Positions 15,716 to 19,556 of a stretch of DNA of 64,000 nt are shown here, piece after piece (the stretch's first letter is position 1; each line of letters begins with the position of its first letter). The notes below the pieces were generated by a model. It did not search any database and was not told the DNA's origin. It worked only from the letters and a program-made list of their open reading frames with translations. Source of the stretch: a virus. Made by a program: the position numbers and the translations under genes. The stretch lies in IMG/VR virus record IMGVR_UViG_3300001505_000001, one strand, 5' to 3'.

Positions 15716-15803
15716 ATGGTGGCAACTTTAACGCATAAAGAAGCCGTAGAATATGTTAAATCATTAGAAGGAAAATATGTTGACTTTGATGGTTGGTATG
15801 GGT
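15716..15803 (+). CDS. Endolysin exon 1 (N-terminus of the CHAP domain)
   Basis: RBS AGGAGGGG then ATG. MVATLTHKEAVEYVKSLEGKYVDFDGWYG matches the PlyTW/LysK-type CHAP N-terminus (..DFDGLYGYQCMDL); the reading frame then hits a stop inside intron 1. The exon ends with U, which pairs with G of the intron IGS. Confidence 0.6.
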
Positions 15804-16119
15804 TAATTGGTAGCCCATGTAAAACTTTTTGAATTGCTGGAAACCCCTAACGTAAAGACGAGGGCAATCAGCAGCGAAGCTCACATGGTAACAGTGTGTG
15901 AACGTTCAACGACTATGTACTATCAATTGATAGGCAGCGGAAAGCGTTTGACAAATATATACTCCTGTGATATAATGTTTTAATATGAAAATTTTGTCAA
16001 ATAATGATATAGTCTGGTCTCATATGAAAATATGAGGCTTTCTTTATGAAAGCTATTAAATGTTATACAATATTATATAGAAATATATAATAGGAAAGGC
16101 ATTTAATAAAACAAAAAAC
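15804..16119 (+). other. Group I intron 1 (ORF-less, about 316 nt) in the endolysin gene
   Basis: P1: exon atgggt (15798-15803) pairs with the intron IGS gcccat (15813-15818), with a U.G wobble at the splice site. P10: intron tggt pairs with the exon-2 start acca. Core elements gaacgttcaacgacta...atagtctgg are shared with intron 2. The intron ends in G (16119). Splicing restores DFDGWYG|YQCFDL. Confidence 0.6.
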
Positions 16120-16633
16120 GACCAATGTTTTGATTTAGCTAACAAATATTGGAATAAATTATTTGGTGGACAATTAAAAGGTCAAGGCGCAGCTGATATT
16201 CCTAATGTTAATGATTTTAGTGGAAAAGCTACTGTTTATCAAAATACAACAAGTTTCTTAGCAAAACCAGGCGACATTGTTGTATGGGGTAGAAACTTTG
16301 GTCAAGGATATGGTCATGTAGCAGTTGTTGTTGAAGCAACATTGGATTACATTGTTGTAATTGAGAATAACTGGTTAGGTGGTGGATGGACTAGTGGACC
16401 GGCACAAGGTGGTACTGGTTGGGAAAAAGCAACTAGACGCCGTCACAATTACGAGTTTCCTATGTGGTTCATCAGACCAAAATACAAAGACGAGAAAAAA
16501 ACTACTAATTATTCTGCTAAAACTAAAACGAAAAAACCAGCTGCTAAAAAGAAAAAAGCTAAAGAAATAAAACACATTAAAGATACAGTTAACGGTTATA
16601 AATTACCAAAACGTAACGGTAAATTAAAAGGTG
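16120..16633 (+). CDS. Endolysin exon 2 (CHAP catalytic core plus linker)
   Basis: (Y)QCFDLANKYW...GDIVVW...GYGHVAVVVE...VVIENNW gives the Cys, His and Asn residues of the CHAP triad; K-rich linker; frame closed by TAA inside intron 2. The 3' boundary is approximate (16631-16634). The track lists only the 3' part, as 16342..16641. Confidence 0.6.
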
Positions 16634-17594
16634 TCGTGTAAAATGCCTATAAATTAATTGACTTTTTTATTTCTTTATGATATAATGACTATATATTTAT
16701 ATATATAGGAGGATATTATATGAAAGAAATTTGGAAAGATGTTCCTAATTATGAAGGAAAATATCAAGTGTCTAATAAAGGAAGAGTTAAATCAATTAAA
16801 AGAACAGTAAAACATAACGGGAGTAAAACTAGGACATTTCCAGAGAAGATTTTAAAACCAAACAAAGTGTCTTTTGATTATTTACAGGTCACATTATATA
16901 ATAATGGTAAAAGAAAATGTAGATATATACACAATTTAGTTATGGAATCTTTTATTGGTAAGAAGCCAAACGGTTATGAAGTTAACCATATAGACGAAGA
17001 TAAATCTAATAATCAATTAGAAAATTTAGAATATATAACAAGAAAAGAAAACAATAATTATGGAACTCGAATAGAACGGATGATTAAATCAAACGTTAAT
17101 GGTAAAAAGAGTAAAAAAGTCAAAGGGACCCATTTAAAAACAGGAGAAATAGTTATTTTTCCATCAATATCCGAAGCGCAAAGACAAGGATATGGACCAA
17201 AAATATCAGAAGTTTGCAATGGAAATAGAAATCATTCCGGTGGTTATAAATGGGAATTTATAAAATAGCACTGCATAGAAAGGAAACTACTATGTACTAA
17301 AAACATAAATTGCTTAGAAGAACCTTAGAGCCTTAATGCCACAATATAGCTGAAAAGACTGTATGAAGGATTAAAAAGTTTAAGGATTGGTTTGTTTAGC
17401 ATCGCTACTCCTAAGTCTTTTAGATATGGAGAACGTTCAACGACTAGACGATTGGCTCGTCGTAGGGTTTAAGTAAACTCGAAAGAAGAACTACCTAAGT
17501 ATTTTATATATGGTAGAAAGATATAGTCTGGACACGCCTTTAATAGGGGTGCTAGGAATCGACCTAGAATTAGATTAACGACCTAATGAAACGT
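16634..17594 (+). other. Group I intron 2 (about 0.96 kb) in the endolysin gene, carrying an HNH homing endonuclease ORF
   Basis: Separates the CHAP-linker exon from the amidase_2 exon at the conserved VIHNDAGS motif. Contains the same P7-type core (ggagaacgttcaacgactag ... gatatagtctggac) as intron 1. Boundaries are approximate (5' splice site 16631-16634; 3' splice site 17594-17598). Confidence 0.55.
16720..17268 (+). CDS. Intron-encoded HNH homing endonuclease (NUMOD4 plus HNH_3 type)
   Basis: EIWKDVPNYEGKYQVSNKGRVKS (NUMOD4 motif) and VNHIDEDKSNNQLENLEYITRKENN (HNH_3 motif); own RBS AGGAGG; located inside the lysin intron. Confidence 0.75.
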   Translation: MKEIWKDVPNYEGKYQVSNKGRVKSIKRTVKHNGSKTRTFPEKILKPNKVSFDYLQVTLYNNGKRKCRYIHNLVMESFIGKKPNGYEVNHIDEDKSNNQLENLEYITRKENNNYGTRIERMIKSNVNGKKSKKVKGTHLKTGEIVIFPSISEAQRQGYGPKISEVCNGNRNHSGGYKWEFIK

Positions 17595-18441
17595 TTCGAT
17601 ACACAATGATGCCGGAAGTAAATATGCTACAGCAGAAGCTTATCGTAATGGATTAGTTAATGCTCCATTATCAAGACTTGAAGCCGGTATTGCGCATGCT
17701 TACGGCTCCGGTAATACAATTTGGCAAGCATTAGATAAATTACAAGTAGGCTGGCACACAGCAAATCCTGTTGGTAACAACGGTTATTATGGTTATGAAG
17801 TTTGTCAATCTATGGGTGCAGATGACAAAACATTCTTAGCAAATGAACAACTAGTATTCCAAGATGCTGCTAGACTTTTAAAAGAAGAAGGACTACCAGC
17901 AAACAGAAATACTGTTCGTCTACATTGTGAATTTGTTCGTACTTCATGTCCACATAGAAGTGCTAAACTACACACAGGATTTGACCCTGTTACTCAAGGT
18001 TTATTACCTAAAGACAAACAGTTACAATTAAAAGATTATTTCATTAAACAAATCAGACAATATATGGATGGTAAAATACCTACTGCAACAGTTGTTAAAA
18101 GTACAAGTGCTTCTAGTAACACTGTTAAACCAGTAGCATCTGGTTGGAAACGTAATAATTACGGCACTTATTATAAATCAGAAAATGCAACTTATAGCAA
18201 TGGTAACACACCAATTATCACACGTACAGTAGGACCATTTAGAAGCTGTCCTCAAGCAGGATTGTTACCAGCTGGAGCAACTATTGTATATGATACAGTT
18301 TGTTTACAAGACTATCATGTTTGGGTAAGTTATGTAACTAACAAAGGTTACAGAGTATGGCTACCTATTAGAACATGGAATGGTGTAGCTCCTGGAAACG
18401 CAGGATATGCTGTAGGACCATTATGGGGATATATCAGCTAA
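17595..18441 (+). CDS. Endolysin exon 3 (amidase_2 domain plus C-terminal SH3b cell-wall-binding domain)
   Basis: [46 protein letters not shown]...GWHTAN...EVCQSM...[17 protein letters not shown] are amidase_2 motifs. The C-terminal ...[51 protein letters not shown]...GPLWGYIS is a staphylococcal-type SH3b domain. The track shows only 17812..18441. Confidence 0.7.
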
Positions 18442-18560: not shown

Positions 18561-19556
18561 ATGGAGGTTATTATAATGGAAAGAAACAATATTTATAGTG
18601 AAGAAATATATAAAAAAGTAAATGATGAATCAAAAGAGCTTTTAAATGATTATATATTAGAGTTAAAGGTTCGTAATCGAGCAGAAAAGACAATTACACA
18701 ATATGAATTTGATTGTAAAATGTTTATGTGTTATGTTTATGATAACATGAACAACAAATCATTACTTGATTTAAAACGCCGAGATTTTAGGAATTTCTTT
18801 TTATTCTTAAAAGAGAGTGGAAAATCAGCAGCAAGAATCAACCGTGTTCAATCTTCAATAAGAAATCTCTTACAGTTTGCCGAAGACGACGAAGAAATAT
18901 ACGAAGATTATGAAGTTAATCCTATGAGAAAAATTAAATCAGTTGAGAAAGAACCTGTTAGAGAGATTGTGTTCTTAACAGATGAACAAGTTACTTATTT
19001 AATTGATTATTTATTAGAGAAAGGTAAAACACAAAAAGCATTGTTTGTTAGTTTTGCTTATGATAGCGTAGCTCGTAGAAATGAAATATCACAAGTTCAA
19101 AAATATAGTTTCCAAGACACAACTAAATCAAGCACTAACGAAGTTGTGGGTAAACGTGGAAAGAGATTTAAGTTAATGTATTCTCAGCGTACTAAAGACC
19201 TTGCTAAAGAATGGCTGGCTGAACGTGGAGAAGATGATGTTGATAGCTTGTGGATAAGTTACTATAATGGTAAACCACGTGCTATTGTATATGACACATT
19301 TTATTCTTGGGCTATATCATTTAGAAGTATATTAGAAGAAAAATACGATGTAGATTTACCATTAAATGCTCACTCGTTCCGTCATAGTGGAGCTGAGAAT
19401 TATGAAAATGGTACACATAGCTCATTACAATTTATGGGTAAAGATAGCTTAAACATAAACGAACTAAAAATATTAATGAATCATGAAAGTATTGATATTA
19501 CTAATAGTTATTTAAGAAATAAAGACCAAGAAATATTGGAAAATTTATTCTCATAA
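18561..19556 (+). CDS. Tyrosine recombinase / phage integrase family protein
   Basis: RBS AGGGGG. C-terminal catalytic motifs LNAHSFRHSGAENYENG (HxxR) and NSYLRN (Tyr); N-terminal SAM-like domain. Confidence 0.7.
   Translation: MEVIIMERNNIYSEEIYKKVNDESKELLNDYILELKVRNRAEKTITQYEFDCKMFMCYVYDNMNNKSLLDLKRRDFRNFFLFLKESGKSAARINRVQSSIRNLLQFAEDDEEIYEDYEVNPMRKIKSVEKEPVREIVFLTDEQVTYLIDYLLEKGKTQKALFVSFAYDSVARRNEISQVQKYSFQDTTKSSTNEVVGKRGKRFKLMYSQRTKDLAKEWLAERGEDDVDSLWISYYNGKPRAIVYDTFYSWAISFRSILEEKYDVDLPLNAHSFRHSGAENYENGTHSSLQFMGKDSLNINELKILMNHESIDITNSYLRNKDQEILENLFS

Follow-up and report, generated by a model that had tools for sequence, protein, structure and literature searches.

The window, i.e., the whole 64-kb stretch of viral DNA that was analysed, contains an endolysin locus that is interrupted twice. 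In all likelihood, it represents a single gene for a CHAP–Amidase_2–SH3_5 endolysin whose three exons are separated by two group I introns; Table 1 gives intron 2 in its preferred register. The three exon peptides described in the original prediction were all recovered. The reading frame of exon 1, which starts at ATG 15716, encodes MVATLTHKEAVEYVKSLEGKYVDFDGWYG and, with its last nucleotide, the start of a Tyr codon. Its product has homologues in the N-termini of staphylococcal lysins without interruption, and exon 1 is contiguous with exon 2 in phage S-CoN_Ph10. The lysin gene ends with TAA 18439-18441. No further introns were found in the 64-kb window, where a search of Rfam, run both with the gathering threshold and with E<=0.01, returned only intron 1 and S808. 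The source phage is, by its sequence, a 6ec-like siphovirus of Staphylococcus epidermidis (genus Sextaecvirus) and not one of the K-like phages with which it had been compared: it shares 99.6% nucleotide identity with Staphylococcus phage 6ec over 3.2 kb. The insertion site of the lysin intron of phage K (WHTG|D; LysK residue 266, corresponding to 17762|17763 in the window) is empty.

Table 1. Predicted features of the lysin locus (positions in the window)
Feature	Start	End	Strand	Remarks
Ribosome-binding site of the lysin gene (AGGAGG)	15702	15707	+	Read in the sequence; 8 nt 5' of ATG 15716
Lysin exon 1	15716	15803	+	29 codons and position 1 of the Tyr30 codon
Intron 1, ORF-less group I intron, 317 nt	15804	16120	+	RF00028 match, P1/P10, empty site
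Sigma-70-type promoter, perfect (TTGACA-17-TATAAT, with TG)	15948	15976	+	12/12 match; in P8 stem-loop of intron 1
Lysin exon 2 (remaining CHAP including Cys32, and linker)	16121	16638	+	Alternative register ends at 16633
Intron 2 (960 nt), group I, lysin-intron family of phages 85, X2, and StB20	16639	17598	+	Alternative 16634-17593
Promoter-like site for the HNH gene (TTGACT-17-TATAAT, with TG)	16658	16686	+	11/12 match
HNH homing-endonuclease gene, 182 aa (NUMOD4, HNH_3, and I-HmuI-like NUMOD)	16720	17268	+	
Ribozyme core of intron 2	17269	17598	+	Guide GCAC 17268-17271, P2 through P9, 12-nt 3' tail ending with G17598
Lysin exon 3 (Amidase_2 from Ile203/His204, SH3_5)	17599	18441	+	Alternative start at 17594

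Joining 15716-15803, 16121-16638, and 17599-18441 yields an endolysin of 482 aa (~54 kDa), in which all three domains exceed their Pfam cut-offs (CHAP, 40.5 bits; Amidase_2, 34.4 bits; SH3_5, 70.6 bits). As expected for the gene structure originally proposed, the joined protein is colinear with 120 uninterrupted homologues, with no gaps at either junction column, and the residues Q31, C32, H204, N205, D206, A207, and G208 are invariant or nearly so (118-120 of the 120 homologues). The CHAP part carries Cys32 and His95, and His204, His311, and Cys319 align with H214, H324, and C332 of LysK and LysGH15; the catalytic and metal-binding roles of these residues are presumably those assigned in the published LysK/LysGH15 structures. 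The alignment to the amidase domain of LysGH15 (4OLS, E=6e-60) and to CHAP structures is likewise gapless across both junctions. The introns, which had been placed at the active-site codons, adjoin these but do not lie in them: intron 1 splits the codon of Tyr30 (T|AC), two codons 5' of Cys32, and intron 2, in the preferred register, is located between Val202 and Ile203, one codon 5' of His204.

Intron 1 is, judged by sequence and predicted structure, a clear group I intron. The full-length covariance model RF00028, whose gathering score is 50, matches it at 15794-16036 with 109.1 bits (E=1.9e-27). The 5' exon forms P1 by pairing of AUGGGU (15798-15803) with GCCCAU (15813-15818), which places a U15803·G15813 wobble at the 5' splice site; P10 is formed by pairing of ACCAAU (16121-16126) with AUUGGU (15806-15811) in all six positions (6/6), and the last base of the intron is G16120. 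The predicted start at 15804 was correct, but the end at 16119 was not, because literal removal of this segment generates a stop codon (GGG TGA); with the end at 16120, exons 1 and 2 are in frame and encode GYQCFDL (predicted junction peptide, YVDFDGWYGYQCFDLANK). Phage S-CoN_Ph10 represents a natural intron-1-less allele: precisely these 317 nt are missing, and its protein has GWYGMQCFDL at the site where the joined protein of the window reads GWYGYQCFDL. Between the window and phage SEP9, intron 1 is 98.9% identical, and the flanking exons are 93% identical.

Intron 1 has no ORF, as originally noted, but contains a perfect promoter in its P8 stem-loop. The homologous intron of phage Golestan101-M carries an ORF of 364 aa in P8, directly 3' of the same TTGACAAAT...TATAAT, whereas SEP9-type copies of intron 1 lack the 42-nt segment that bears the promoter. 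This suggests that the promoter in intron 1 is probably a vestige of a lost endonuclease gene.

On the basis of sequence similarity, intron 2 belongs to a family of lysin introns already known from phages 85, X2, and StB20. Its ribozyme part is 83% identical to that of phages 85 and X2, 81% to that of StB20, and 82% to that of phage OPT-SC01. Although phages 85, X2, and StB20 are temperate siphoviruses unrelated to the phage in the window, their introns share with intron 2 an ORF directly 3' of the 5' splice site and an insertion at the start of the amidase_2 domain, adjoining the codon of the zinc-ligand His. The covariance-model search that readily identified intron 1 fell short for intron 2, which scores only 25.8 bits against RF00028, below the gathering score of 50 (17305-17551; E=3e-4 in a search of 1.1 kb), and remained unmatched in the Rfam search of the whole window. 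Its two P1 strands are parted by an ORF cassette of 630 nt, whereas RF00028 expects a contiguous P1. The ORF-less copy in OPT-SC01 also has no match in Rfam and therefore does not help in fixing P1 or the 3' end. Introns 1 and 2 have the core motifs GTTCAACGACTA and GATATAGTCTGG in common, including motifs of P7. The subgroup IA2 suggested originally would be recognized by peripheral helices (P7.1/P7.2) and signatures of the core sequence; in both introns, extra hairpins are present in the segment that separates P7 from the 3' strand of P3. In the intron 2 family, the two strands of P7 (GACUA/UAGUC) do not vary, and compensatory changes are present in 11 of the 87 predicted pairs, a count based on only five closely related sequences. 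S-CoN_Ph17, which harbors the most divergent copy, could not be used for covariation because of many indels that are apparently assembly errors. RNAalifold proposed a helix (GUGUA/UACAC) between the 5' splice region and the beginning of the 3' exon, which was rejected because it is disrupted in phage 85 and lacks covariation. A scan of genomes and viral contigs with a 20-nt core motif detected only identical copies of the phage 85 type and one chance match in a MAG of Ignavibacteriaceae, and did not increase the diversity of the family. The intron 2 site is empty in phages BE02 and SEP9; BE02 reads KLKGIVIHNDAGS, and its uninterrupted sequence at the site is AAAGGAATAGTTATACAC.

The prediction of an HNH gene in intron 2 was confirmed by the matches of its product to NUMOD4 (62.8 bits; cut-off, 23.4) and HNH_3 (55.5 bits; cut-off, 24.8) in Pfam; the I-HmuI NUMOD-like domain scores 19.2 bits, which is below its cut-off. 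The protein is 71% identical to the intron-encoded HNH protein of phage 85 and 69% to that of StB20. Its gene separates the 5' strand of P1 from the internal guide sequence of intron 2 and is preceded by a ribosome-binding site (AGGAGG, 16707-16712) 7 nt 5' of ATG 16720.

The exact junctions of intron 2 are ambiguous by 5 nt. In the preferred register (16639-17598), the predicted junction is GUCGUG|AUACAC and the protein reads ...KGVVIHND. This register fits the relatives better because the intron opens with UAAAA, as in other members of the family, because the 3' tail after the last helix comprises 12 nt (OPT-SC01, 12; StB20, 12; phage 85, 11), and because residue 202 becomes Val (V 95, T 24, I 1, and S 0 among the 120 homologues). 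The original prediction had placed the intron at about 16634-17594; the end at 17594 does not hold, but removal of 16634-17593 is also in frame and would yield ...KGVSIHND (junction GGUG|UUUCG; predicted junction GGUG|UUUCGAUACAC), so that the start of exon 3 with VSIHND is one of two possible registers, albeit the less favored one. That intron 2 of the same two-intron gene occupies 16634-17593 is a possible alternative. In this case, the intron would also end in G, the exon end (AAAGGUG|U) would be identical to that of StB20, P1 would be one pair longer, and the insertion would take the same position in the protein alignment as those of phages 85 and StB20, whose HNH proteins are closely related; in the preferred register, the insertion points of the latter are 5 nt upstream and their 3' tail sequence differs. 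Moreover, the U/C variation at 17595 (CF9, Ph10, and Ph11) would be synonymous, which has, however, a probability of ~40% by chance. By contrast, the 3' tail would be reduced to 7 nt (11-12 nt in all relatives), the intron would open with UCGUG instead of UAAAA, and residue 202 would be Ser, which is absent from this position in the 120 homologues. P10 is weak in all members of the intron 2 family and cannot separate the two registers.

The last base of the 5' exon in group I introns is almost universally U. In the intron 2 family, however, every in-frame solution that keeps the terminal intron G has G as the last base of the 5' exon, including the only in-frame solution common to the window, phage 85, StB20, and OPT-SC01; the conserved U·G of the family sits one base inside the intron, and the terminal G is retained. 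It is conceivable, although rather unlikely, that the introns of phage 85, 6ec, and OPT-SC01 splice after a G–C pair and that the copies located 5 nt apart reflect intron sliding; the window, which offers both registers (GGUGU|CGUGU and AAACG|UUUCG), could then give rise to Val202 and Ser202 isoforms or represent an intermediate of the slide. A still less probable explanation is cleavage after U16639 and after G17593, the only fully canonical pair of sites, which is in frame, pairs a terminal exon U to G, and has an intron ending in G. The predicted junction (GUGU|UUUCG) would contain an extra UUUUCG, i.e., a Phe-Ser insertion, and extend the protein by two residues (...KGVVFSIHND). Such an insertion is present at the junction columns in 0 of the 120 homologues, the tail would again be only 7 nt, and use of the corresponding sites would put the lysins of phage 85, StB20, and OPT-SC01 out of frame.

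With the preferred register, the lysin gene would be transcribed as one pre-mRNA, in which each intron folds as a group I ribozyme and is self-excised in two transesterification steps initiated by GTP. Splicing would join 15803 to 16121, and 16638 to 17599 (less likely 16633 to 17594), and the mature mRNA would encode the 482-aa lysin. On unspliced RNA, ribosomes would be halted by the in-frame stop codons that had been correctly located just inside each intron, namely TGA 15830-15832, 27 nt into intron 1, and TAA 16639-16641, the first codon of intron 2 at its boundary with exon 2. Since there is no in-frame start codon 5' of Cys32 within exon 2 or 5' of His204 within exon 3, an active enzyme should need both splicing events, and it is reasonable to infer that lysis depends on splicing. 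Intron 2 would bring its own promoter, ribosome-binding site, and I-HmuI-like HNH gene, whose product would serve in homing, whereas intron 1 would have retained only the promoter of such a gene in its P8 loop. Both splicing and homing are predictions from the sequence.

That the gene is not spliced at all, and that the lysin is broken by a free-standing endonuclease gene and junk DNA into fragments that are either separate polypeptides or dead, is highly improbable: separate ORFs are indeed annotated in GenBank, and some staphylococcal phages encode their lysin as two adjacent genes (PMC6507118), but intron 1 is a high-scoring ribozyme match with fitting P1 and P10 and is better conserved than the exons, removal of both insertions restores the frame exactly, the fragments that contain the CHAP Cys and the amidase His have no upstream start codon, and the split arrangement has been kept in 27 lytic Sextaecvirus phages without any other endolysin annotated in the lysin module. 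Nor are the insertions a matter of chance, because intron 1 matches Rfam with E=1.9e-27 and natural alleles without each of the insertions exist in near-identical phages.

Of the 27 Sextaecvirus genomes, 15 have the same pair of lysin introns as the window, which makes this arrangement, originally considered unusual, the most frequent one in the genus; two lysin introns occur also in the K-like phage OPT-SC01. Intron 1 is combined with the K-site intron in eight of the 27 genomes, and two of the 27 have all three lysin introns; an intron-free lysin gene was found in none of the 27. Intron presence is patchy among near-identical genomes, and substitutions are clustered at the insertion sites. 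The HNH enzyme of intron 2 presumably drives homing into intron-less lysin alleles in mixed infection, and Sextaecvirus offers a handy natural system for studies of intron homing and loss.

The closest counterparts are the endolysin region of phage 6ec (NC_024355, PHAGE6E_51 to _54) and those of other Sextaecvirus phages; the region of 6ec comprises the same exons, introns, and HNH gene as the window, which differs from 6ec by few substitutions. In the public annotation of 6ec, the region consists of separate ORFs in GenBank without a joined CDS. A recent preprint (bioRxiv 10.1101/2025.02.06.636829) reports 'two different insertion events' in the 6ec endolysin (A0A060AB53; region shown in its Supplementary Figure S2), so that the two insertions as such are already known. 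An earlier survey (Oliveira et al. 2019; PMC6507118, supplementary file 8) concatenated two ORFs of 6ec to a protein of 308 aa ('CHAP??') and listed the SEP9 lysin as a single 428-aa gene without the catalytic Cys. A search of proteins for a fully spliced Sextaecvirus lysin was negative; its best match (P0001) is a gene call that begins inside intron 1. Candidate enzymes against S. epidermidis include the endolysins of 6ec, SEP9, and their relatives, but every public record and the 2019 survey contain truncated lysins in which the catalytic Cys or the zinc-binding His is missing; to obtain the correct 482-aa product, cDNA or a synthetic fusion of the exons would be required.

The picture of lysin introns that emerges contains nothing conceptually new. 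The lysin intron of phages K, G1, and A5W (lys-I1, with I-KsaI) likewise belongs to group I, carries an HNH gene, and interrupts a CHAP–Amidase_2–SH3b lysin, but it represents a different family and is inserted at a different site; its homologue, whose HNH protein shares 53% identity with I-KsaI, occurs as the third intron in BE02, CF9, and BE22. Staphylococcal lysin genes have three separate intron sites, each with its own intron family and all adjoining conserved active-site codons. Siphoviruses, temperate phages, and myoviruses that are not related to one another share these families, and a single genus shows them in every combination. Several group I introns per essential phage gene have been described for orf142 of phage Twort (three introns) and the terminase of SEP1 (two introns), as cited in PMC11265418 and in the references of the preprint on 6ec; both genes and introns differ from those in the window. 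Phage PH15, which is listed in the literature as having a lysin intron that splices in vivo, was dropped as a precedent, since the lysin region analysed contains no intron signal and only its upstream ORF matches the window.

A parallel among the myoviruses is provided by the K-like phages OPT-SC01 and Golestan101-M. Their first lysin intron is a homologue of intron 1, with ~70% identity over 81% of its length and similar 5' and 3' ends, and likewise interrupts the CHAP domain shortly before the catalytic Cys, albeit 9 nt (three codons) further upstream and in a different CHAP subfamily. The second lysin intron of OPT-SC01 is the ORF-less copy of intron 2. In the OPT-SC01 homologue of intron 1, P1 with its guide sequence and P10 have changed together with the different exon sequence of this phage.

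The lysin region of the window reads as a single endolysin gene with three exons and two group I introns, as the original prediction held: the three coding pieces were found at the positions it gave, and both junctions of the joined frame are free of gaps against 120 uninterrupted homologues. Joining 15716–15803, 16121–16638, and 17599–18441 yields 1449 nt encoding 482 amino acids, and the junctions are likewise gap-free when the protein is aligned to known structures of CHAP domains and of the LysGH15 amidase. Residues Q31, C32, H204, N205, D206, A207, and G208 are conserved in 118–120 of the 120 homologues; Cys32 and His204 are equivalent to Cys54 and His214 of LysK. Reading on from exon 1 meets a TGA at 15830–15832 and from exon 2 a TAA at 16639–16641. 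Because no in-frame start codon was found ahead of Cys32 in exon 2 or ahead of His204 in exon 3, a functional lysin should depend on both splicing events.

Features of the lysin gene and its product (nucleotide positions in the window; domains as residues of the joined lysin)
Feature	Position	Strand	Remark
Exon 1 start (ATG)	15716	+	AGGAGG upstream
CHAP	residues 28–113		above Pfam cut-off
Amidase_2	residues 196–321		above Pfam cut-off
SH3_5	residues 393–459		above Pfam cut-off
Promoter in P8 stem-loop of intron 1	15948–15976	+	perfect sigma-70 TTGACA-17-TATAAT, extended -10
Promoter-like site in intron 2	16658–16686	+	followed by AGGAGG ribosome-binding site
NUMOD4/HNH_3 endonuclease gene, 182 aa	16720–17268	+	domains detected

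The peptide across the junction of the first intron (G-Y-Q-C) agrees with the one quoted in the original prediction, but the literal removal of 15804–16119 leaves a stop (GGG TGA). Removal of 15804–16120 gives GGG T/AC CAA TGT in frame and an intron of 317 nt that ends in G16120 and contains no ORF. A covariance-model search bears out its assignment to group I: the Rfam model RF00028 matches 15794–16036 with 109 bits (gathering score 50, E = 1.9e-27). P1 pairs AUGGGU with GCCCAU and has the wobble U15803·G15813 at the splice site; in P10, exon 2 pairs through its six leading bases (ACCAAU), without a mismatch, with AUUGGU (15806–15811). In phage S-CoN_Ph10 precisely this stretch is missing and the protein reads GWYGMQCFDL; the flanks of that phage are 97.5% identical to the window, with four substitutions grouped within 5 nt at the junction. 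A homologue of intron 1 in OPT-SC01 and Golestan101-M, both K-like myoviruses, is inserted 9 nt closer to the 5' end, in another CHAP subfamily, and its guide sequence is altered to match that site (AUGGAU/GUUCAU).

The intron of Golestan101-M (locus L009:880–2018) carries a 364-aa ORF at the P8 position, directly behind the same promoter as in the window; Pfam gives a weak HTH_28 match alone for its product. In SEP9-type copies of intron 1, P8 is 42 nt shorter and the promoter is absent. The promoter is probably the remnant of a lost endonuclease gene and could start transcripts without exon 1. Between the window and SEP9 (L002:1805–2079), intron 1 is 98.9% identical, the flanking exons 93%, and exon 3 89.6%, which fits either a recent lateral spread of the intron or a ribozyme under tighter constraint than the coding sequence. 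At the P1 and P9 hairpins of intron 1 (15796–15820 and 16016–16039, + strand), a simple scan picks out two terminator-like hairpins that carry T-runs; they are probably artefacts of that scan, though they may cause premature termination within the intron.

Intron 2 is 960 nt long, and its ribozyme part (330 nt) follows the HNH gene. This part matches an unannotated stretch of the lysin gene in phages 85 and X2 at 83% identity, the corresponding stretch in StB20 at 81%, and an ORF-less copy in OPT-SC01 at 82%; the HNH protein shares 71% identity with that of phage 85 and 69% with that of StB20. In phages 85 and StB20, the two that were fetched, the ribozyme segment likewise comes after the HNH gene, between two ‘endolysin’ ORFs, and Oliveira et al. 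(2019, PMC6507118) include phage 85 in their list of 20 staphylococcal phages whose lysin gene contains group I introns. The score of intron 2 with RF00028 is only 25.8 bits (gathering score 50), partly because the ORF cassette separates the 5' strand of P1 from the guide sequence. Its core motifs GUUCAACGACUA and GAUAUAGUCUGG are common to both introns, and a five-sequence alignment contains compensatory changes at 11 predicted pairs. Natural alleles without intron 2 are present in BE02 (KLKGIVIHNDAGS) and SEP9.

A 5-nt near-repeat at both ends of intron 2 (GGUGU/CGUGU and AAACG/UUUCG; 16630–16641 and 17588–17600) allows two registers 5 nt apart, each in frame and each ending in G. Splicing at 16639–17598 (GVV/IH) is the probable choice because of the length of the 3' tail, the start of the intron, and the Val at residue 202. 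The tail after the last helix measures 12 nt, as in OPT-SC01 and StB20 (11 nt in phage 85), the intron begins with UAAAA like its relatives, and residue 202 is Val in 95 of the 120 homologues and Ser in none. The register of the original prediction, 16634–17593 (GV/SIH), is also in frame and ends in G, and it shares its P1 with StB20 and its insertion position with phages 85 and StB20, but with a tail of 7 nt and Ser202 it is the less likely solution. The insertion points of the homologues themselves differ by 5 nt between phages 85 and StB20 on the one hand and OPT-SC01 on the other. In the putative P1, exon G(U/C)G and the U after it pair with G-C(A/G)C, which lies just 3' of the ORF; phage 85 has one compensatory change (GCG/CGC). 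Only one pair of splice sites puts the window, 85, StB20, and OPT-SC01 all back in frame with a terminal intron G, and it makes the last exon base G instead of U, so that the conserved U·G falls one base inside the intron. The window also offers a fully canonical choice, U16639/G17593, which lengthens the protein by two residues and would break the frame in the other three phages.

Judged from these sequences, ordinary group I self-splicing is the best-supported mechanism. Both introns would splice themselves out of the late lysin transcript, the early in-frame stops would keep ribosomes from the ribozyme cores, and the HNH enzyme would be made from its own promoter and mediate homing. Substitutions cluster at both insertion sites (GGA ATG to GGG TAC; GGA ATA GTT to GGT GTC GTG), which fits co-conversion or guide-sequence matching.

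Introns occupy three sites in staphylococcal CHAP–Amidase_2–SH3b lysin genes, and each site has its own intron family. Site 1, before the CHAP Cys, is occupied in the window, nearly all Sextaecvirus phages, OPT-SC01, and Golestan101-M; site 2, before the amidase His, in the window and phages 85, X2, StB20, and OPT-SC01; and site 3, after WHT(A/G), in phages K/G1/A5W (lys-I1 with I-KsaI) and in BE02, CF9, and BE22. The group I intron of the latter three encodes an HNH protein 53% identical to I-KsaI (loci L003:2808–3683 and L004:3765–4656) and lies at the same codon position as the lysK intron of phage K, whereas this position is vacant in the window (WHTA/NPVG, 17762/17763). Seven more Sextaecvirus phages have a site 3 intron, judged by match spans only. 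Of the 27 Sextaecvirus phages that the collection contains, 15 carry introns 1 and 2, eight introns 1 and 3, two all three (CF9, BE22), one intron 2 only (S-CoN_Ph10), and one intron 1 only (SEP9); none has an intron-free lysin gene. Most of these calls derive from match spans, and 11 were checked by sequence, annotation, or a 275-nt intron 1 match (6ec, SEP9, BE02, CF9, BE22, and S-CoN_Ph3, Ph9, Ph10, Ph11, Ph14, and Ph17). The two-intron lysin, thought to be unusual, is thus the commonest state.

Nor is the window K-like: the 3.2 kb around the lysin gene are 99.6% identical to Staphylococcus phage 6ec and 91–98% identical to 25 other Sextaecvirus members, which identifies the source by sequence as a 6ec-type phage of this genus, a lytic siphovirus of S. 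epidermidis. A tyrosine recombinase gene lies directly 3' of the lysin (18561–19556, + strand), although the phage is reported to be strictly lytic, a neighbourhood already commented on (PMC6507118). Numerous frameshifts and indels in the lysin region of several S-CoN_Ph records, such as those throughout the HNH gene and ribozyme of S-CoN_Ph17 (L011) and the frame shift within a poly-A run of S-CoN_Ph10 (L010), look like assembly errors rather than biology.

The two-intron lysin is real and already known in outline. The annotation of 6ec has four separate ORFs (‘hypothetical protein similar to amidase’, ‘endolysin’, ‘HNH endonuclease’, ‘endolysin’) and no joined CDS, and its genome announcement does not mention introns. 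Oliveira et al. (2019, PMC6507118) recorded 6ec as ‘two genes spliced’, concatenating two annotated ORFs to 308 aa marked ‘CHAP??’, and treated the SEP9 lysin as one gene of 428 aa that lacks the catalytic Cys. A 2025 preprint (10.1101/2025.02.06.636829) cites the 6ec fragment A0A060AB53 as an example ‘with two different insertion events’ and reproduces precisely this stretch (GTG at 15719 through the stop) but still tabulates the protein as [Amidase]:[intron]:SH3b_P1. The corrected exon structure remains of use, as does the question of splice-site chemistry and register in intron 2.

The spliced lysin of the Sextaecvirus clade was not found in the protein collection searched; the best match (P0001, from an ENA metagenome contig) is a gene call beginning within intron 1. 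Metagenomic calls for the clade use an ATG in the 3' part of the intron (16056–16120 in the window) and read on into exon 2 (MLYNIIQKYIIGKAFNKTKND-QCFDL...), so that database ‘endolysins’ of SEP9-like phages have intron-encoded N-termini. Wholly within exon 3, in the region of the amidase–SH3b linker, RF02897 (‘Staphylococcus sRNA 808’) matches 17997–18251 (+ strand) with 212 bits. Eight homologous lysin genes that were fetched also score above the model's gathering threshold of 76 (189–260 bits, with 260 in phage 85), and StB20, A5W, and Golestan101-M score below it (28–42 bits); this Rfam family seems to represent part of a prophage lysin mRNA and not an sRNA gene in its own right.
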